Assembly: GCA_964586355.1 (NCBI GenBank)
Contig: CAZPGO010000043.1
Location: 10,427-42,426, forward strand
DNA length: 32,000 bases
Reading direction: 5' to 3'
From: an uncultured archaeon
GTDB taxonomy: Archaea > Iainarchaeota > Iainarchaeia > Iainarchaeales > CSSED10-239
Every line of letters starts with the position of its first letter. Position 1 is the first letter of the stretch. This document shows, one piece after another, positions 15,900-28,972 of this stretch. The position numbers and the translations under genes were made by a program. The notes under the pieces were generated by a model. The model saw nothing but the letters and a program-made list of their open reading frames with translations. It was not told the origin of the DNA and ran no database searches.

Positions 15900-15979
15900 T
15901 AATACACCTGTGCTTTATTATTTAAGATTAATTAAATAGATAAACAAAACATATAAAAAACAATTTGTAACAAAAAAAA

Positions 15980-16054
15980 TGGAAGATGCAGGATTCGAAC
16001 CTGCGACCCTTGGTGTATAAGACCAATGCTCTGACCAGACTGAGCTAAACTTCC
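15980..16054 (-). tRNA. tRNA-Ile, anticodon UAU (decodes AUA)
   Basis: The reverse complement folds as a 75-nt cloverleaf: GGAAGTT-TA-GCTC-AGTCTGGTCA-GAGC-A-TTGGT-CTTATAC-ACCAA-GGGTC-GCAGG-TTCGAAT-CCTGC-ATCTTCC-A. The anticodon loop is C-U-UAU-A-C. No CCA is encoded and a T-run follows the gene. There is one U6-U67 mismatch in the acceptor stem. Confidence 0.85.
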
Positions 16055-16121
16055 AATATTTAAAATTGTCTCCTATAAATAATATAAGAATAAGAAATAT
16101 ATTTAAACCTTTAAGATTTTA

Positions 16122-18197: not shown

Positions 18198-18458
18198 TTA
18201 AAGCTGACCTTGTTTTTTTTTAAGTTTTAAAAATTTACTCTCAAATATTTCTTTGTTATCATAATCTAAAAAAAATCTATTATTTACTAGTTCTAGATCA
18301 AAAAACCCTGTTTTGTATTTATTTTCTAGACCTTTTTTAAATTCATTAAATTCCTTGTTTTTATTTAATAATATTTTTTCATCTAGATCTAAAAAAGGTT
18401 TCATTTCTTGTTTTAATTTTAAAAGATATTTTTCTGGGTAAAATAAATCATTTGACAT
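18198..18458 (-). CDS. Hypothetical protein
   Basis: 86-aa ORF with an ATG start, lying 14 nt downstream of the histone-fold gene on the same strand. No family recognised. Confidence 0.45.
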   Translation of the reverse strand: MSNDLFYPEKYLLKLKQEMKPFLDLDEKILLNKNKEFNEFKKGLENKYKTGFFDLELVNNRFFLDYDNKEIFESKFLKLKKKQGQL

Positions 18459-18472
18459 AATAATAACCTTTT

Positions 18473-18880
18473 TTACTTATGGAATTTTCTTTCAACATCG
18501 TCTATTAAAATATCACATTCTGCTTTTATTTTTTCTAGATTCTTAATTATTCTTATTTTTTCTAATTCGATTGTTTGAATATTTTCAAAAGTTTCTATAG
18601 CTTGTTTAAACATTCCATAGTCAACATAACTATATTCATAGCTATTCATTTTTTTACAAATTGTTTCTACAATTTGACCTAAAAACAAGTTCATTTCTTT
18701 TTTTACTATTCCTTTTATTTGCTTATGAGGATCTAAACTTTTTCTCATTAGTCTTACAACCGTTGCATTAGGGAAAGGCAATTTTTCATCATCTAATTCT
18801 TCTTCTTCACTATCTTCTAATACCTCGTCTAAGTCTTCTCCTTCTAATTCTGCTTTTGTTTTATCTATTTCATCAGTCAT
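18473..18880 (-). CDS. Histone-fold protein (CBF/NF-Y/archaeal-histone family) with acidic N-terminal tail and helical C-terminal extension
   Basis: 135-aa ORF. The core LPFPNATVVRLMRKSLDPHKQIKGIVKKEMNLFLGQIVETICKKMN...VDYGMFKQAI aligns by eye with NF-YB/Dr1/archaeal histone helices a1-L1-a2-L2-a3. The first ~33 residues are strongly acidic (EGEDLDEVLEDSEEEELDDE). Confidence 0.65.
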   Translation of the reverse strand: MTDEIDKTKAELEGEDLDEVLEDSEEEELDDEKLPFPNATVVRLMRKSLDPHKQIKGIVKKEMNLFLGQIVETICKKMNSYEYSYVDYGMFKQAIETFENIQTIELEKIRIIKNLEKIKAECDILIDDVERKFHK

Positions 18881-19026
18881 ATAAATTACCTCTTTTTTAT
18901 AAAAATAGTTATAATATTCTATAATATATATAGGTATAGAAGGCTTTAAATATGTATTTTTTAAGAATTTTTTCCTTAAAAAACTGATAAAAATAGCTAC
19001 TTAAAATTAGTTAATTTAAAATAAAT

Positions 19027-19049
19027 AAAAAATAAAAAAAATAAAAAAA
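19027..19049 (-). terminator. Oligo-T termination signal for the acidic mini-ORF unit
   Basis: On the minus strand, a T7 run (19043-19049) and a T8 run (19034-19041) begin about 23 nt after the stop of mini-ORF A. Archaeal RNA polymerase terminates at oligo-T tracts. Confidence 0.35.
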
Positions 19050-19071
19050 GTTCAAATAAAGACCTTAGTAA

Positions 19072-19170
19072 TTATTCGTCTTCTTCATCATCATATTCTT
19101 CATCATCATAATCGAAGTCTTCTTCTTCTTCATCACTATATGCCACATAATAGTTTTTATCTAAACTCAT
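19072..19170 (-). CDS. Hyper-acidic mini-protein A (32 aa)
   Basis: ATG..TAA frame translated by hand: MSLDKNYYVAYSDEEEEDFDYDDEEYDDEEDE. GGGTGAG (SD) ends 4 nt before the ATG. It lies 17 nt downstream of mini-ORF B. It is absent from the track only because it is under 60 aa. Confidence 0.5.
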   Translation of the reverse strand: MSLDKNYYVAYSDEEEEDFDYDDEEYDDEEDE

Positions 19171-19187
19171 ATGTCTCACCCTTTTTT

Positions 19188-19352
19188 TTATTCATCACTG
19201 TCTGAGTCGATCTCATCAAAGTCGTAGTCGTCATCATTTTCGAAATCTCTGTCTATGTCATTAATGTTATCGTCTTCAACAACTTTTTCATCGCCGTCGT
19301 AATCATAGTCATCTAAGTTATAATCGTCTGACAACTGGTATATATTTTTCAT
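19188..19352 (-). CDS. Hyper-acidic mini-protein B (54 aa)
   Basis: ATG..TAA frame translated by hand: MKNIYQLSDDYNLDDYDYDGDEKVVEDDNINDIDRDFENDDDYDFDEIDSDSDE. GTGAGGAG (SD) ends 4 nt before the ATG, and a TATA-like box lies about 30 nt upstream. Confidence 0.55.
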   Translation of the reverse strand: MKNIYQLSDDYNLDDYDYDGDEKVVEDDNINDIDRDFENDDDYDFDEIDSDSDE

Positions 19353-19382
19353 CTAACTCCTCACAATTTATTTTTTAGTTGC

Positions 19383-19390
19383 TATAAATA
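19383..19390 (-). promoter_or_regulatory. TATA-box-like element upstream of mini-ORF B
   Basis: The minus strand reads TTATTTATAGC, with the TTTATA hexamer about 30 nt upstream of the ORF B ATG. This leaves room for a short SD-containing leader. Confidence 0.3.
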
Positions 19391-19522
19391 ATTTGTTATG
19401 GTACCATAATATTTAAAAATATGTACTAAAACTCAAATTACAAGATATATTTATATATGTTTTGTTGTCTTTAAAAAACAGATTTTAAAAATAGATTGCA
19501 GCAAATATATGTATGATCTACT

Positions 19523-20458
19523 ATGGTTCTTAAAAAAAACATTTATTTTCCACCTGATTTTCTAGAAAAATATAAAAAGATTCTAAAAGAGAAAGATTTT
19601 GAAAGATTTATTGATTCTTGCTCTGTAAGATTAACAAAAGCTATAAGAATAAACAAACTAAAAGTTAATTCTATTGATGAGATTGAGATATTAAAAGAGC
19701 TTAATCTAAAAGAAACACCATACATAAAAGACACATATTTTATTTTATCAACTGTTTCAGCTATAGGTAACACTGTTGAACAATTAAATGGATTATTTCA
19801 AATTCAAGAAGTATCTTCATTATTACCAGTTATTGTTTTAAATCCAAGACCTAAGGATATTATTTTAGATCTAACTGCAGCACCTGGTAATAAAACAACC
19901 TATATTGCTGAAAAAATGAATAATACTGGTTTAATTATTGCTAATGAAATAGATACTAAAAGAATAAAGACATTAATCTATGCTCTTAAAAAATTAGGTG
20001 TAACTAATACTATTGTAACTAATTTTGATGGGAGAACATTTGATTTAAATATAAAATTTGATAAGATCTTATTAGATGCTCCTTGTAGTTGTGAAGGAGA
20101 GATTAAAAAAAATAAAGATGTTTTAAAAAGCTGGAGTGAAAAATTGGTTCTATCTAAATCAAAATTACAAAAAGAGTTAATCCTTAATGCTTTTGATCAA
20201 CTTAAACAAGGAGGAATATTAGTATATTCTACTTGTACTCTTTCTCCTGAGGAAAATGAAGAGGTTATTGATTATTTGATTAAAAAGAGAAAAAAACTTT
20301 CTATTGAAAGAATAAGTATCCCTAACTTAAATTATAAAGAGGGGTTGGAAAAATATAAATTAAAAACATACTCTCCAGAAGTTAAAAAATCTATAAGAAT
20401 TTGGCCTCAACTTACTGACTTAGAGGGCTTTTATATCTGTAAAATAAAAAAGGAATAA
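19523..20458 (+). CDS. NOL1/NOP2/Sun-family RNA cytosine-C5 methyltransferase (RsmF/Trm4-like)
   Basis: 311-aa ORF. The SAM-binding block is DLTAAPGNKTT. The catalytic Cys motifs are DAPCSCEG (motif IV, PC) and YSTCTLSPEENE (motif VI, TC). The N-terminal pre-methyltransferase domain ends in RINKLK. Confidence 0.85.
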   Translation: MVLKKNIYFPPDFLEKYKKILKEKDFERFIDSCSVRLTKAIRINKLKVNSIDEIEILKELNLKETPYIKDTYFILSTVSAIGNTVEQLNGLFQIQEVSSLLPVIVLNPRPKDIILDLTAAPGNKTTYIAEKMNNTGLIIANEIDTKRIKTLIYALKKLGVTNTIVTNFDGRTFDLNIKFDKILLDAPCSCEGEIKKNKDVLKSWSEKLVLSKSKLQKELILNAFDQLKQGGILVYSTCTLSPEENEEVIDYLIKKRKKLSIERISIPNLNYKEGLEKYKLKTYSPEVKKSIRIWPQLTDLEGFYICKIKKE

Positions 20459-21815: not shown

Positions 21816-21841
21816 TATTTAATCACAAATTAAAAATTATA

Positions 21842-21916
21842 TGGGAGAGGCAGGATTCGAACCTGCGACCTCTCGATTATCAGTCGAGTGCTCCAACCAG
21901 ACTAAGCTACACTCCC
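21842..21916 (-). tRNA. tRNA-Ile, anticodon GAU
   Basis: The reverse complement folds as a 75-nt cloverleaf: GGGAGTG-TA-GCTT-AGTCTGGTTG-GAGC-A-CTCGA-CTGATAA-TCGAG-AGGTC-GCAGG-TTCGAAT-CCTGC-CTCTCCC-A. No CCA is encoded. There is a U6-U67 mismatch in the acceptor stem. Confidence 0.9.
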
Positions 21917-22025
21917 ATCTTAAATATAAAAACAGTAAATAAATATATTAATACAAAAACAAATAAAAACCCTTTGCTTTTTATTTACAAAAAGTAATTC
22001 CTTTTTAAAAATTACTACTTATAGA

Positions 22026-22388: not shown

Positions 22389-24197
22389 TTATTTAATATT
22401 CTCTAAAGATTTTTTAATATTCTGATATCTTAATAAAAGCGCATCTATTTTTTCTTTCGAAAGTTCACTCTTATTTGTTTTTTCAATATCTTCTTTTAAA
22501 AGAGAAATTTCTTCTTTAATCTCGGAATATTTAGTAGACTGTTTTAGATATTTTTCTACAATTTCATTTAATCTATCTGTGTTTTTTGACAGGATCTTTA
22601 AATTTGAAGAAAGTCTTGCATTTATCTCTTCTTTTCTTGCAAGAATTATAATTTCTTTTAATTGATCAGCAGTCAAAGCTAGATCTAAAGAGTCTTTTGT
22701 TTTCTCTAATTTTGCAATTTGCTCTTGCAAATCATTAATATTTTCTTCATTTTGATTTGTAAAAGATATTTTTTCTAAAAGTTTTCTATGATTTAAAATT
22801 CTGTTTTCTAATCTGTTTTTTGCATGATCTGATAATATAATAGAATTTTCATAAATTAGATCTGTTTTTTCTAAAGCATTCTTTTTTGCAAAAACTTGTT
22901 TTAAATTCTCGATTTCTGATCTTTGATTTTCTACTTGTTTTTTTAATTCTGACTTTTCTTGTTCTAATTCTTGTATTCTTTGTTTTAATTTTTCTTCTTG
23001 ACTTTGGTTTATTTGCTCTCTAGTTATATTAGACTCGCAATTAACCATTTCTAATTTGTTTTTATAAAACTTAATTTTTTCTTCTAATAAATAAATTTCC
23101 TCTCTATTAGTTGTTTTTTGTATTTGTGTATTTAATTGATCTAAAGCAGATAATATTTCTTTTTTTTCCACACAATCATTTTTTTCAATAGATTGAATTG
23201 AAATTTCTTTTTGAGAATTACAATTATTTTTTATTTGCTCTATTTTTTTAAAAATAAATGCGTGTCTTGTAATTAATAGTTCTAGCTCTTTTATTTTGTC
23301 TCCATCTGACTGAACCAAAGTTTCGGATTTTAATAACTTAATTTGTTCTTTTAATCTCATTTCTTCTTCTAAAAGATAATTTGGAATTTCACAAATAGAG
23401 GTGAAATTTTTTCCAGTACATTCTTTTATTAAAGCATTTCTTTTTTCTATAAGAGCAGATAATTTTGTAATATCTTCTTTATGTTGTTCTTTAAAGACTA
23501 CAACCTCTTCTTTGATTTTTTGCAAATTATCACTTGCATTTTCAAAATTGTTTTTTTCTTCAACACAATAATCTTCTAAAGAATTTAGTTCTTCAGGGAT
23601 TTGCTCAAAAACAAAATTTTGGGATTCCATTTCTTTTAATTTATTTTCTAAACTATCTATAGTAAAATCAGTTTCAGAAACTATGCTTTGATCGTCTTTT
23701 AAAATAGGTGCATCTGTAGAAACTGTTTTTGAAAGTGATTTTGAGGATAATATTAAATTTCCGGTTATATTTGTGGTGCCATAATTATTAGCAACAGGTG
23801 CATCATTCTTAAGCCTATATGCTTTTTTTAAACAAACCATATAAGATTCATAAGCTGCTTTATAATTTCTGTTTTGATTTCTAAAAGAATTGCTTATTTC
23901 TTCTGTTTTTTGTAGTTTTATTCTTATTTCATCTATTTCTTTTTTAAGTTGATCTAATTTTTCTTTACAACTATTATTATTGCTTGTTTCCAAAACTTCA
24001 CAGGGAAAAAACTCACAATTATTTGTTGGATCTCTTGATACAAAAGAACCGTCTGGACATTCTTTAACATCCATTGTACAAACTAATGGATTTTCTAAAT
24101 TTTCTGCATCTGTATTTTCTAGAGCAGTATTTTCATTAGCATATATTTGTGATGCTATCAAAAATAGAAAAAAAATTGTAAAAATTATTTTTTTCAT
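22389..24197 (-). CDS. Secreted long coiled-coil protein with N-terminal 4-Cys module
   Basis: The track ORF starts at 24212 (MEARNM...), but those first codons spell ATGGAGGCAAGAAAC. This places a perfect GGAGG 8 nt before the second ATG (24195-24197), which gives a canonical signal peptide, MKKIIFTIFFLFLIASQIYA. The rest is heptad-rich and Lys/Glu/Leu/Asn-dominated. Confidence 0.65.
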   Translation of the reverse strand: MKKIIFTIFFLFLIASQIYANENTALENTDAENLENPLVCTMDVKECPDGSFVSRDPTNNCEFFPCEVLETSNNNSCKEKLDQLKKEIDEIRIKLQKTEEISNSFRNQNRNYKAAYESYMVCLKKAYRLKNDAPVANNYGTTNITGNLILSSKSLSKTVSTDAPILKDDQSIVSETDFTIDSLENKLKEMESQNFVFEQIPEELNSLEDYCVEEKNNFENASDNLQKIKEEVVVFKEQHKEDITKLSALIEKRNALIKECTGKNFTSICEIPNYLLEEEMRLKEQIKLLKSETLVQSDGDKIKELELLITRHAFIFKKIEQIKNNCNSQKEISIQSIEKNDCVEKKEILSALDQLNTQIQKTTNREEIYLLEEKIKFYKNKLEMVNCESNITREQINQSQEEKLKQRIQELEQEKSELKKQVENQRSEIENLKQVFAKKNALEKTDLIYENSIILSDHAKNRLENRILNHRKLLEKISFTNQNEENINDLQEQIAKLEKTKDSLDLALTADQLKEIIILARKEEINARLSSNLKILSKNTDRLNEIVEKYLKQSTKYSEIKEEISLLKEDIEKTNKSELSKEKIDALLLRYQNIKKSLENIK

Positions 24198-24218
24198 GTT
24201 TCTTGCCTCCATAATATT

Positions 24219-25411: not shown

Positions 25412-28400
25412 TTATCTTTTTTTAATTGCATTTAAAATATAATCATAATCTTGTTGAAACTGTTCTTCACTAGCTTTACTATTTTTTGGAGGTGGTGTTT
25501 CTTTTTTTGTTTCTGTTTTTTGGTTTGTTTCTGTTTCTGATTTTCCTAAATAATCATTCATCATAGAACCAGTATCTGGTTTTATCATGTTTTTTATATC
25601 TCTATCTCTTTTTGATTTAAAAATAATACCAATAATTACTAATAAAGACAATAACACAAACAGAGCAATTACTAAATAAATTATTATTTTTGTATTTAAT
25701 GGTTTTGTAATTGTAATCTGTTCAGCAATTACTTCCCCACTTAAAACAACAGGATCTGTAAAAAATATTCTAGAATATTTGGTAGCGACATCTACATCTG
25801 TTATTATGTTTTTGTTTTTATAGTTTAAAGTAACATTTGATTTTGCTGGGATGGTATAAGAATAAGAGACTATGGGATCTCTTAATAAAATAGTTACTGG
25901 CTTAGAAAATATTAAATCAGAGGCATCATTTGCAAAAGATTTTGGAACGTCTTCAATAATTGTAATTGTTTGATCAAAATCACTATTATTTTTTATAGAA
26001 AGTATTACTGCAAAATATTTGTTTTGACCTATTTGCTGAACCACAAAATTTCTGTCAACAGAAATTGCTGCACTTTCATATAGTTTGTTTGTATCTCTTA
26101 AAATGTTTGCATCAAAAACATATTTAGAAACAATATTAAAGTTATTAATATCGTAATTTGTTGTAATTGGGGTGTTTTTTATTTGTTTTTCTTCTGGTAG
26201 TTGATCTATAATTGTTGTGTGCTGAGTGGATATTTCAGAATACTTTGTTTTTGCATCAACAAACTTATTTTGATCATACAAAAGGTCTGCAACTTCTTTT
26301 TGTTCTTTTAAATTTTGAAGTTGTGTTTTTAGATCTTCTGGCAAAACTATTAACAAATCTTCTAAAACAAATATTTTTTCTTCAAGATCTATAAGATCTG
26401 TGGTTAGTTTTTCTTTTAAAAAAGTTGAGCTTTCTTTGTCTTCATCTACATTATTAATAACAAAAGTAATTTCTTTTTTTGTAACATTTAATGCTTTATC
26501 ATACCCATAAACAAACAAAACATAATCTCCATCAGAATAAGATAACGTATCAAATTCACAAGCAAAGGTTTCTGATTGATTTTTTTCTACAATACATATT
26601 TCTTCATTATCATTTAAGAGATATTGAAGTCTAAAAAGATCTTCTGAAAAATTATTAGCATCTAAATTTATTGTTGTATTTTCCCAAACTAAATTCACAT
26701 CAAAAATAGGCAAATTTGAATCAACTATAAAATCAAAGATATTTTCAGCAGTTTCATTTTGGAGATTTTTTCCACTTATCTTTAATTCTGATTCTCCATT
26801 ATTATTAAAATCATAAGTTGTAGAAATATTTTTGCCTGTTTTTGTAATACTTAATATTTTTGAGATGTTTCCTGTTTTTAGAGTAACAATTGGATTAGCA
26901 CTAAGCTCTTGATCACTAATAAAATTTATATTTTTTAAACCTCTTCCAACATATAAAACACCATTAACATCATTAGAAGGAACAATACTTAAAGTAAATG
27001 TTGGACCATATCTTCTTGCTTGTGCTGATTTTTCAGAACTTAGGTTTGATTCATTGCCAGCATCATCTATTGCTGAGATCTTAAAATAAAACATAGATTG
27101 TTCATTTGGGTTAAAAATAGTTTGAAGATCATCTGTTTCTAGATATAAATCGCTTTTTGTAACTCCTGTTTGTTTAGAATAATAAACCCTATATTTAATA
27201 TCATCACTTAGATTATCATCACTAGAAGACCAAGATAATTTTATAGATCCATTTGTTTGAGTTGTTGCTGTAAAATTTATGGGGATTGTTGGTGCTGTTG
27301 CATCATATATTATTTCGTCGCTACATATTGTTGTATAGTAGGGATCATCTTCACTTTTTACTTTTAGATATATTGTTTTTTCTTCTTGCCTATTATTACA
27401 TCCTGTTCCACTTATAATATTAAAGGCATAATCATCATCGTCAATATCTATAAAACTAGTAAAAGAAGTACCATTACAACTAAAAGCAAATAAATTAACA
27501 TCATCTGAAAATTCTAATTCCATTTGCGGAGTTGCAGATTTTGTAAACTTATCGCCATCAGCAATCTCTATAGAACAACTTGGACCTGTGTGAATATATT
27601 CTGAATTGACATCACTTTTATTTCCTGCAAAATCTATTGCAGAAACACCATAGTATATTCTTGAATTTGAGGGTTTTGAAGTTGTATCTTCACAGGTTTT
27701 ACTCTCACTTGCTAAAACTGTACAGATTAGTGTTTGGGTGGTTACTGGAGTAAATGAACTACTAGATCTATAAACTTTATACTCTTTTACTCCTGATAAA
27801 TCATCTGTTACTGCATCCCAAGTAAGAGTTACATTTTTATCAGCATCTATTGAAAGTGTTTTGATATCTGGAATTTCTGGTGCTGCTTTATCAATAACAA
27901 CATTAAAATCTAATTCTAATAAATTGTCTAAATTATCCATAACATTTAGATATATAACAAAAGTATCGTCTGTTTGCCAAGTGGATCCTAGGAGTGGTGT
28001 AAAAGTAATATAAAAAGTATCTGTTAAGGAATTAAAATTACCGCTTACTATTCTATCATCAGGTAATCTTATAGAATAAAAAGTACTTGGAGAGTCTGAA
28101 TCTATTCCTGAAACATCTGATACAGGTATATTAAGATCAAAGGCATCACTTTTATTAACATAAATTACAGAATCATCATCAACAGCTCCTAAATTTGTTT
28201 CTTCAAATTCTGGAGTTGAATTATCAAAATAAACTAGTCTTTTTGTGTTTAAAACAGATGTATTTAAAACCAAATTTCCCGCAATATCATTTGCATCTAA
28301 TAAAACATAGTAGTTACCATCAGGTATTTCTAGATCAATAGAATTAATTGAGATGCTTACAGATGTGTTTATATCTATTATTTTTTTTGTGTATTGTGTC

Positions 28401-28972
28401 AAATAATTAGTTTCTAAGCCAACTGGCACCACATAAACTATTTGCTTATCAATATATGTGCTAGAATCAGCTGCAGGAGCTACATTAACAGAGATTGTTT
28501 TTGAATAGAAATCATTATACTTTTCTCCGGTTGTATTTGTTATGGAATTTATTGTACCTGCTGTTGGTTTAATATTATCAAAAGTTAAGGAATCTGATTT
28601 TCCTTGACCATCGGTGTCTGAAACTGTTATTGTATCATAATTATTTATAATTATTATAGGTGTACCATAGGAATCATAACTAGATTCACTAGCAGTGGTG
28701 CTCATATAAAAACTACCACTAAAATTAGTGCCAATGACAACAACATTAAAATCTAGACCAGTTGAGTCTTTTTGTGATTTTATATTTAATAATATTTTGT
28801 TATCTGTAATTCCGTCTGTATTTGATAAAGTCCCAGTAATGTGCTGAACTTGTATTGTGTTAGTATATTCATCAGTAATACTTAGTGTGGAAATAGTATA
28901 TGCAAAAATAGAATTTTGCAAGAATACACAAAATATTAAAGTTATTAAAAATAATAAATGTTTTTTGGACAT
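25412..28972 (-). CDS. Large cell-surface protein (signal peptide, FN3/Ig-like repeats, C-terminal TM anchor plus cytoplasmic tail); S-layer or adhesin candidate
   Basis: 1186-aa ORF with the signal peptide MSKKHLLFLITLIFCVFLQNSIFA. FN3-like modules are present (LTWDAVTDDLSGVKEYKVYRS...SAIDFAGNKS; LSWSSSDDNLSDDIKYRVYYS...SAIDDAGNES). A TM helix, IIIYLVIALFVLLSLLVIIGIIF, lies near the C-terminus and is followed by a basic/Thr-rich tail. Confidence 0.75.
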   Translation of the reverse strand: MSKKHLLFLITLIFCVFLQNSIFAYTISTLSITDEYTNTIQVQHITGTLSNTDGITDNKILLNIKSQKDSTGLDFNVVVIGTNFSGSFYMSTTASESSYDSYGTPIIIINNYDTITVSDTDGQGKSDSLTFDNIKPTAGTINSITNTTGEKYNDFYSKTISVNVAPAADSSTYIDKQIVYVVPVGLETNYLTQYTKKIIDINTSVSISINSIDLEIPDGNYYVLLDANDIAGNLVLNTSVLNTKRLVYFDNSTPEFEETNLGAVDDDSVIYVNKSDAFDLNIPVSDVSGIDSDSPSTFYSIRLPDDRIVSGNFNSLTDTFYITFTPLLGSTWQTDDTFVIYLNVMDNLDNLLELDFNVVIDKAAPEIPDIKTLSIDADKNVTLTWDAVTDDLSGVKEYKVYRSSSSFTPVTTQTLICTVLASESKTCEDTTSKPSNSRIYYGVSAIDFAGNKSDVNSEYIHTGPSCSIEIADGDKFTKSATPQMELEFSDDVNLFAFSCNGTSFTSFIDIDDDDYAFNIISGTGCNNRQEEKTIYLKVKSEDDPYYTTICSDEIIYDATAPTIPINFTATTQTNGSIKLSWSSSDDNLSDDIKYRVYYSKQTGVTKSDLYLETDDLQTIFNPNEQSMFYFKISAIDDAGNESNLSSEKSAQARRYGPTFTLSIVPSNDVNGVLYVGRGLKNINFISDQELSANPIVTLKTGNISKILSITKTGKNISTTYDFNNNGESELKISGKNLQNETAENIFDFIVDSNLPIFDVNLVWENTTINLDANNFSEDLFRLQYLLNDNEEICIVEKNQSETFACEFDTLSYSDGDYVLFVYGYDKALNVTKKEITFVINNVDEDKESSTFLKEKLTTDLIDLEEKIFVLEDLLIVLPEDLKTQLQNLKEQKEVADLLYDQNKFVDAKTKYSEISTQHTTIIDQLPEEKQIKNTPITTNYDINNFNIVSKYVFDANILRDTNKLYESAAISVDRNFVVQQIGQNKYFAVILSIKNNSDFDQTITIIEDVPKSFANDASDLIFSKPVTILLRDPIVSYSYTIPAKSNVTLNYKNKNIITDVDVATKYSRIFFTDPVVLSGEVIAEQITITKPLNTKIIIYLVIALFVLLSLLVIIGIIFKSKRDRDIKNMIKPDTGSMMNDYLGKSETETNQKTETKKETPPPKNSKASEEQFQQDYDYILNAIKKR

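Follow-up and report, generated by a model that had tools for sequence, protein, structure and literature searches.

Two hyperacidic mini-genes in the gap beside a histone-like gene

The 32-kb stretch of contig CAZPGO010000043.1 analyzed here (the window, meaning the whole stretch) comes from an uncultured archaeon of the Iainarchaeota, whose close relatives bear the names Candidatus Iainarchaeum and Forterrea (DPANN archaea). The window has a GC content of about 26%, and its genes include those of a thermosome, of aminoacyl-tRNA synthetases and of an Ssb-like OB protein. A 642-nt gap is bordered on one side by the gene of a 135-amino-acid (aa) histone-like protein (18473–18880, minus strand) and on the other by a divergent gene for an RsmB/F-like methyltransferase (19523–20458, plus strand), and the minus strand of this gap carries two short open reading frames (ORFs) in tandem. 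ORF B (19188–19352) encodes a hyperacidic mini-protein of 54 aa with 25 D/E, 3 K/R and 7 Y/F residues and a net charge of −22, and ORF A (19072–19170) encodes a hyperacidic mini-protein of 32 aa with 18 D/E, 1 K and 6 Y/F residues and a net charge of −17. An earlier note, made from the sequence alone, had described both ORFs, and its coordinates, translations and counts of acidic, basic and aromatic residues are exact. The pair was called hidden in that note, which is correct in that both ORFs fall below an ORF track of at least 60 aa, but standard gene callers do call them for this organism, in four public assemblies whose loci are identical in sequence to the window. The NCBI entry for a B homologue is a hypothetical protein.

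The length of the ORFs alone proves nothing, since 9% of the shuffles of the 642-nt gap yield an ATG-initiated ORF of at least 54 aa (P about 0.09). The GC content is 0.35 in ORF B, 0.29 in ORF A and 0.17 in the remainder of the gap. When the six frames of the 32 kb were scanned for 30-aa stretches with at least 50% D/E, only ORF B, ORF A and the N-terminal tail of the 135-aa gene product were found. Such stretches are confined to three places and are therefore not genome-wide low-complexity DNA, which removes the possibility, raised in the earlier note, that the acidic runs are strand-symmetric low-complexity sequence found throughout the intergenic DNA.

All expression signals previously noted are at the locus. 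A Shine-Dalgarno (SD)-like sequence GTGAGGAG (19357–19364, minus strand) lies 4 nt upstream of the B ATG; it is kept in a related locus (L009), and other lineages have GAGGT/AGGTG-type sites or no leader. The SD-like sequence GGGTGAG (19175–19181, minus strand) lies 4 nt upstream of the A ATG, and a GGTGA SD site is found upstream of every A orthologue at a distance of 5–9 nt. The TATA-like box TTTATA (19383–19388, minus strand), about 33 nt upstream of the B ATG, may act as promoter, and a second A/T box is located at about 19408–19417. The TTTATA block is near-identical in L009, and TTTATATA-type boxes are present at other loci. Between the two TATA-like boxes lies a perfect 14-bp palindrome, TTATGGTACCATAA (19396–19409), a candidate operator; L009 has an identical copy, and other species have degenerate versions (TAATGnnnCCATAA). 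Its reading as the operator of a regulon was rejected, with a single exact copy in the window. Downstream of A, runs of T7, T8 and also T6 (19027–19049, minus strand) resemble an archaeal-type oligo-T terminator, and at all loci T-rich runs lie downstream of A or, in its absence, of B. Judged from this promoter-like region and putative terminator, the tandem pair appears to form a transcription unit of its own, as had been suggested. A promoter block of the form ATATTTAAAG[GC]CTTCTAT[AG]CCTATATATATTATA (window about 18905–18950) upstream of the 135-aa gene is common to the clade-1 loci, and its conservation is far above that of the surrounding intergenic DNA.

ORF B and ORF A are conserved protein-coding genes

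Related loci were collected with the 135-aa neighbor as the handle, which yielded 15 GTDB species loci and 61 metagenome loci, with more from exact-protein look-ups. A B-like ORF, the kind of syntenic small acidic ORF that the earlier note proposed to seek in relatives, occurs at 49 loci (the window counted). These ORFs comprise 35 distinct sequences, each of them encoded on the strand of the 135-aa gene and located upstream of it, and further B cases are supplied by loci L085–L088. In close pairs of B sequences, nonsynonymous differences (pN, 0.05–0.11) are far below synonymous ones (pS, 0.6–0.9), and the ratio of nonsynonymous to synonymous substitution rates (dN/dS) is about 0.05–0.2 where dS is unsaturated. 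The dN/dS of A is 0.1–0.5 in close pairs and up to 0.8 overall. Nucleotide differences at codon positions 1/2/3 amount to 53/44/159 in B and 58/60/168 in A, so that in both genes third-position differences are about three times as frequent as first- or second-position ones. The starts and SD sites are conserved in both genes. B and A are genuine conserved protein-coding genes, and it is their conservation that is decisive. We are confident that B is a functional protein and consider that A probably is one as well. Some K/M/T-rich ORFs overlap A in the +1 frame; they are a by-product of the GAN repeats, which hold two frames open.

The family was sought in sequence databases. In a word-index search, B alone retrieved one relative and a B alignment retrieved 19, all of the B family. 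An exhaustive HMMER search of 1.84 billion representative proteins yielded five 50%-identity clusters, all of the B family and only from this Iainarchaeota lineage, and no distant relatives or domain fusions were found among these representatives. No Pfam, NCBIfam, PHROG or PADLOC model matched A or B, and no Pfam model (DSS1_SEM1 included), with E allowed up to 10, matched any of 21 members of B and 9 of A. Since all five HMMER clusters belong to the B family and no model matches, the family is lineage-restricted and undescribed, in agreement with the earlier statement that no described family resembles the pair. Whatever their function, these genes show that DPANN archaea with reduced genomes can have core genes under strong selection that encode mini-proteins of less than 60 aa, and ORF-length filters at 60 aa or more miss such mini-proteins.

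ORF B carries an invariant aromatic motif in predicted disorder

Residues 10–19 of ORF B read D-Y-N-L-D-D-Y-D-Y-D and are followed by the later aromatic anchors F37, Y43 and F45. The corresponding family motif, [DE]-Y-x-[LFPI]-x-[DE]-[FY]-D-Y-D, is retained across sequences that are just about 30% identical. Y11, Y18 and D19 are invariant in all three B alignments, and D17 is invariant in two of them and conserved at 90% or more in the third; at other positions D and E swap freely, while the aromatic positions are fixed. The N-terminus of B is short and variable (MKNI/MNNV-like or Lys-rich). The acidic linker reads DGDE..EEKEDIE in clade 1 and DEDPKKKK in clade 2, and beyond it come a second aromatic residue (W/F/Y) within an acidic run and a C-terminal DSDxD[FY], DSDSDY or DSEY.

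AlphaFold, run with a 16-sequence alignment, predicted no secondary-structure element in B, with a predicted template modelling score of 0.16 and a mean predicted local distance difference test (pLDDT) of 61, and the highest pLDDT was at the motif (residues 11–20). This predicted pattern is typical for a disordered protein with a short binding motif. The Y-x-L-x-x-F string of B was also considered as a PIP box, a reading ruled out by inspection, with the two adjacent aromatics absent.

In two lineages (L057/L021 and L086), B bears a Lys-rich, SPKK-like N-terminal extension of 50–130 aa. In these extended forms (L086, 1847–2353, 168 aa; L057, 1997–2284, 95 aa; L021, 5343–5783) the extension, of a kind that binds DNA, is fused to the conserved acidic-aromatic module. 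The histone-like proteins beside extended B carry longer acidic tails (149 aa in L021 and 158 aa in L086), and the fusion is a hint in favor of a histone-binding role. A compensation between the presence of A and histone tail length was considered as well and set aside, the independent lineages being too few.

ORF A begins with a short aromatic N-terminus (NYYVAY), followed by D/E runs broken by F/Y. Its orthologues likewise have an aromatic or hydrophobic N-terminus, conserved as MYVINND..GQ.YK, and then FEDFDEED-type repeats. The length of A ranges from 32 to 56 aa, with orthologues of 41–56 aa in the clade-1 loci, and A is confined to clade 1 plus an A-like ORF in L087. This lineage, a more divergent one, has the two genes in inverted order, with the A-like ORF (1129–1287) first and a diverged 93-aa B-like ORF (1478–1759), whose motif has drifted to DFDEVSSYDYGED, second, and a 143-aa membrane protein lies between the pair and the histone gene.

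The adjacent gene probably encodes a coiled-coil histone

In the 135-aa neighbor, an acidic disordered N-tail (residues 1–32, net charge −16) precedes a core that resembles the histone fold, and a long helix lies at the C-terminus. The core region (residues 33–135) is 76–97% identical across the GTDB species loci and 68% identical in L021, and the N-tail is acidic, variable and without aromatics. The protein matches Pfam CBFD_NFYB_HMF with E = 0.013 and 16.1 bits, below the cut-off of 21.4 and over residues 36–77 (alpha1-alpha2) only; a relative 48% identical to it passes this cut-off with 24.7 bits. AlphaFold predicted helices at residues 38–48, 57–80, 85–99 and 101–133, with pLDDT of 89–95 for helix 101–133 and below 50 for residues 1–28, and these helices fit the histone-fold pattern alpha1-L1-alpha2-L2-alpha3. 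The top 15 Foldseek matches are all NF-YB/NF-YC-type histone-fold chains, and they are weak (E 0.09–0.6, TM 0.2–0.3). The JGI label of the protein is 'histone H3/H4', and residues R46, K53, K56 and K60 on its alpha1/L1 face are invariant.

Coiled-coil (CC) histones with highly negative disordered tails have been reported in Iainarchaeota (Schwab et al. 2024, PMC11390915). Both a long C-terminal helix after the fold and a strongly negative disordered tail, traits of CC histones, are present in the 135-aa protein. From the weak Pfam match, the relative that passes the cut-off, the AlphaFold model, the Foldseek matches and the JGI name, the protein is probably a CC histone with an acidic disordered tail, and we propose it as the partner of A and B. 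For the tails of CC histones an auto-inhibitory role has been proposed, in which they cover the DNA-binding alpha1 face, and HMfC has been shown to bridge DNA (PMC11390915). Some histone relatives (L078–L080, 49–53% identical) are without the acidic N-tail and have C-terminal acidic tails with aromatics, e.g. DSIADFSFNEEKDE, which constitute an acidic-aromatic element in cis.

A possible histone-binding role for the mini-proteins

B is found upstream of the histone-like gene and on the same strand at 14 of the 15 GTDB species loci, and the fifteenth is cut by the contig end. B is likewise present at every metagenome locus that has a histone of 68% identity or more and sufficient upstream sequence, and no acidic ORF was found within the fetched flanks beside histones that are 45–64% identical. 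At Forterrea-like loci (L016, L019 and L020) the upstream neighborhood is swapped for a tRNA gene and others, and B remains on the histone side. The earlier note had offered three roles for the pair, namely a DNA mimic or decoy, a chaperone or partner of the adjacent histone-fold protein, and a divalent-cation-binding peptide. Because B co-occurs with that histone subfamily wherever the upstream sequence suffices, the role of partner of the histone-fold protein fits the context best.

We propose that B and A would act in trans as disordered, DNA-like competitors, in which the acidic runs would form a cap over a basic surface that binds DNA, and the aromatic residues would be anchored by their side chains in hydrophobic pockets. 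The most likely target would be the alpha1/L1 face of the adjacent probable CC histone. The peptides could act like a chaperone that escorts free histone or keeps it away from DNA, or they could instead tune the DNA bridging of the histone. They would be trans-acting, stronger versions of the histone's own acidic tail, with a binding mode as in eukaryotic chaperones with DEF/Y motifs that would be of independent origin here. We regard the chances that B and A act as polyanion-plus-anchor competitors as evenly balanced. That the histone is their partner, as the genomic context suggests, is a tentative assignment, and we are similarly guarded about the reading as a whole, in which B and A are trans-acting disordered polyanions whose aromatic anchors bind the DNA-binding face of the histone as chaperone or competitor.

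The closest functional analogues are eukaryotic and viral. A DEF/Y motif consists of F/Y after consecutive D/E and works with C-terminal DSDF, DSDW or ESDY anchors, and double- or triple-anchor peptides are found in eukaryotic H2A-H2B chaperones and in BKRF4 of Epstein-Barr virus (EBV) (PMC9477414). Strings of this definition are present in B (DDY at 9–11 and 14–16, DDDY at 40–43, and YDFD), where they lie in predicted disorder, and in A (EEEEDF and DDEEY). The DEF/Y regions of the chaperones Swc5, Spt16, YL1, APLF, Chz1 and ANP32E and of the viral mimic EBV BKRF4 have, like B and A, disordered D/E runs with F/Y/W anchors. DEF/Y peptides have two or three anchors and a C-terminal DSDF, DSDW or ESDY, which the C-terminus of B (DSDHDF, DSDSDY or DSEY) resembles. 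DEF/Y regions compete with DNA for the histone surface, which for B and A is a proposal. Unlike the DEF/Y regions of large chaperones, B and A are archaeal, free-standing and 32–80 aa in length and have no sequence homology to them, and the partner of the former is H2A-H2B, whereas the presumed partner of B and A is a homo-oligomeric coiled-coil histone.

A second likeness is to the acidic tails of CC histones (PMC11390915), which are, as B and A are, highly negative and predicted to be disordered; the 135-aa neighbor has such a tail. These tails are part of the histone itself, whereas A and B are separate genes with what appear to be their own promoter and terminator, and A and B are aromatic-rich, with a fixed motif in B, whereas the cis tail of the neighbor is aromatic-free. 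Prothymosin-alpha and the acidic tail of HMGB1 are polyanionic disordered regulators of linker histone H1 and HMG boxes that are nearly free of aromatics. They share with B and A polyanionic disorder, which in their case competes with DNA for basic chromatin proteins and in the case of B and A is proposed to do so. The Lys-rich-plus-acidic forms of B (L086 and L057) recall a layout in which an acidic tail comes after a basic region that binds DNA, with no homology.

Several observations weigh against the histone as the partner. The gene order histone-thermosome-SSB-p456-IleRS (SSB, single-stranded DNA-binding protein; IleRS, isoleucyl-tRNA synthetase) is syntenic at all 15 GTDB species loci, except that at a few of them p456 or IleRS is absent or would lie past the end of the fetched sequence. 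Given this conserved block, the adjacency of B and the histone gene may be inherited gene order, and the partner may be another protein. B is at times 1–2 kb away from the histone gene. A 186-aa, membrane-protein-like ORF lies between A and the histone-like gene in L008 (5307–5867) and L009 (5263–5823), so in some species the pair is not directly beside the histone gene. The oligo-T runs and the separate, strongly conserved histone promoter place B-A and the histone gene in separate transcription units. The histone-fold assignment itself is only probable, with a sub-threshold Pfam match and Foldseek TM of 0.2–0.3: when the PDB was searched by sequence with the alignment of the histone, no histone was retrieved, and hhalign of the 135-aa protein against NF-YB and HMfB was not significant. 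The net charge of the histone core is just +4. Finally, with 50% D/E and 15% aromatics, DEF/Y-like strings are almost unavoidable, which makes the motif test weak.

Neither histone chaperones nor chromatin remodellers have an identified homologue in archaea (PMC7990501), and the role of the acidic tails of CC histones is still open in the literature (PMC11390915). Acidic disordered peptides that compete with DNA or bind histones are known from eukaryotes and viruses, and the B/A family is homologous to none of them. What is new in B and A is that they are archaeal, free-standing and tied to the gene of a non-nucleosomal histone. A trans-encoded acidic-aromatic pair locked to a CC-histone gene makes the questions of archaeal chaperones and of the tails directly testable. 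B and A might even be the first dedicated histone-binding regulators or chaperones in archaea, free-standing and independently evolved, which would exert a DEF/Y-like cap-and-anchor control over the DNA binding and bridging of a CC histone and in some lineages would be fused to an H1-like Lys-rich tail, but we hold this broader view to be doubtful.

Alternative explanations for the acidic pair

The pair could be a generic nucleic-acid mimic directed against another basic protein, e.g. the OB-fold SSB two or three genes downstream, in the style of DSS1/Sem1 and RPA, or ribosomal or other Lys-rich proteins of this AT-rich organism. DSS1/Sem1 is a eukaryotic acidic protein of about 70 aa studded with aromatics that acts as a DNA mimic toward RPA and is a partner of BRCA2 and of the proteasome lid. 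B and A are like it in size, hyperacidity, disorder and the presence of W/F/Y within D/E runs, and the gene of an OB-fold SSB (Pfam Ssb-like_OB, E = 3.7e-11) lies near them, inside the conserved block. The DDWDDD strings of clade-2 B recall DSS1, and the composition and disorder on which such mimicry would depend are the same as for a histone competitor. However, the 21 B and 9 A members had no match to DSS1_SEM1 (PF05160) at E up to 10, and B and A differ from DSS1/Sem1 in having no C-terminal helix and in being restricted to a single archaeal lineage. Moreover, SSB and thermosome also adjoin the histones of relatives that have no B; therefore, B tracks the histone subfamily or the lineage and not the presence of SSB. 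We consider a generic mimic of this kind unlikely.

A charge-based function similar to that of Hero proteins, as a solubility or anti-aggregation factor or a polyanionic buffer with no specific partner, perhaps together with the nearby thermosome, would suit hyper-charged disordered proteins in small genomes, and the thermosome is in the same syntenic block. The tolerance of A for lengths of 32–56 aa and its relaxed dN/dS of 0.1–0.8 would also agree with such a function. In B, by contrast, strong purifying selection maintains an invariant aromatic motif at specific positions, which argues for a defined binding site rather than bulk charge. A Hero-like role is quite improbable in our estimation.

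Binding of Ca2+ or Mg2+ through an EF-hand-like DxDxDG loop had been suggested from DYDYDGDEKVVE in ORF B, which matches loop positions 1, 3, 5, 6 and 12 but not 8, and dense carboxylates do bind cations non-specifically. This pattern is lost in half of the B family: Gly6 together with an acidic position 12 (Glu12) is kept in 16 of the 35 distinct B sequences, the other clade has DYDEDPKKKK, and position 8 is hydrophobic in only 2 of the 35. The invariant residues are instead the aromatics of loop positions 2 and 4, and these do not serve as ligands. AlphaFold predicted no helix of at least 4 residues in B, hence no helix-loop-helix context with flanking helices, and EF-hand Pfam models did not match window B or the 21 B members at E up to 10. 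Conservation, predicted structure and profile searches thus put the EF-hand reading of B out, and a cation-binding function of the peptides is very improbable.

An anti-defence DNA mimic, also envisaged at first and taken here as one of the Ocr/ArdA type from a virus or mobile element, would be small, strongly acidic and without family, as anti-defence genes typically are, but the pair is vertically inherited on the chromosome, its place among the RsmB-like methyltransferase, thermosome, SSB and IleRS genes is kept in many species, including a complete 0.84-Mb genome, and neither A nor B matches PHROG or PADLOC, which leaves this role scarcely credible. Equally hard to credit, and largely refuted for B, is the view that these ORFs arose by chance in GAN-repeat DNA rich in purines or are upstream ORFs with a regulatory role and an irrelevant peptide: with P about 0.09 their length on its own carries no significance, and GAN repeats automatically open two frames, yet the nucleotide differences follow a strong periodicity of three bases in the D/E frame of both genes, pN is far below pS in B, starts and SD sites are conserved, the B motif is kept at about 30% identity, and a putative oligo-T terminator precedes the next gene.

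Other features of the window and related loci

A small Lys-rich ORF of 73–87 aa with no family match lies between the histone-like gene and the thermosome gene in some lineages (window 18198–18458, minus strand; L085, 1121–1363; L086, 3029–3250; L087, 3025–3288), and its N-terminus shows the loose pattern Y-x-x-K-L-x-x-E-M. Two large ORFs of the window, of 1186 aa (25412–28972, minus strand) and 607 aa (22389–24212, minus strand), have no precomputed Pfam match and are only 23–43% identical to their counterparts at related loci. ARAGORN detected a tRNA-Ile with the anticodon TAT at 15979–16055 (minus strand) and a tRNA-Ile(GAT) at 21841–21917. In archaea, AUA is usually decoded with a modified CAU anticodon, and tRNA-Ile with a UAU anticodon is uncommon there.

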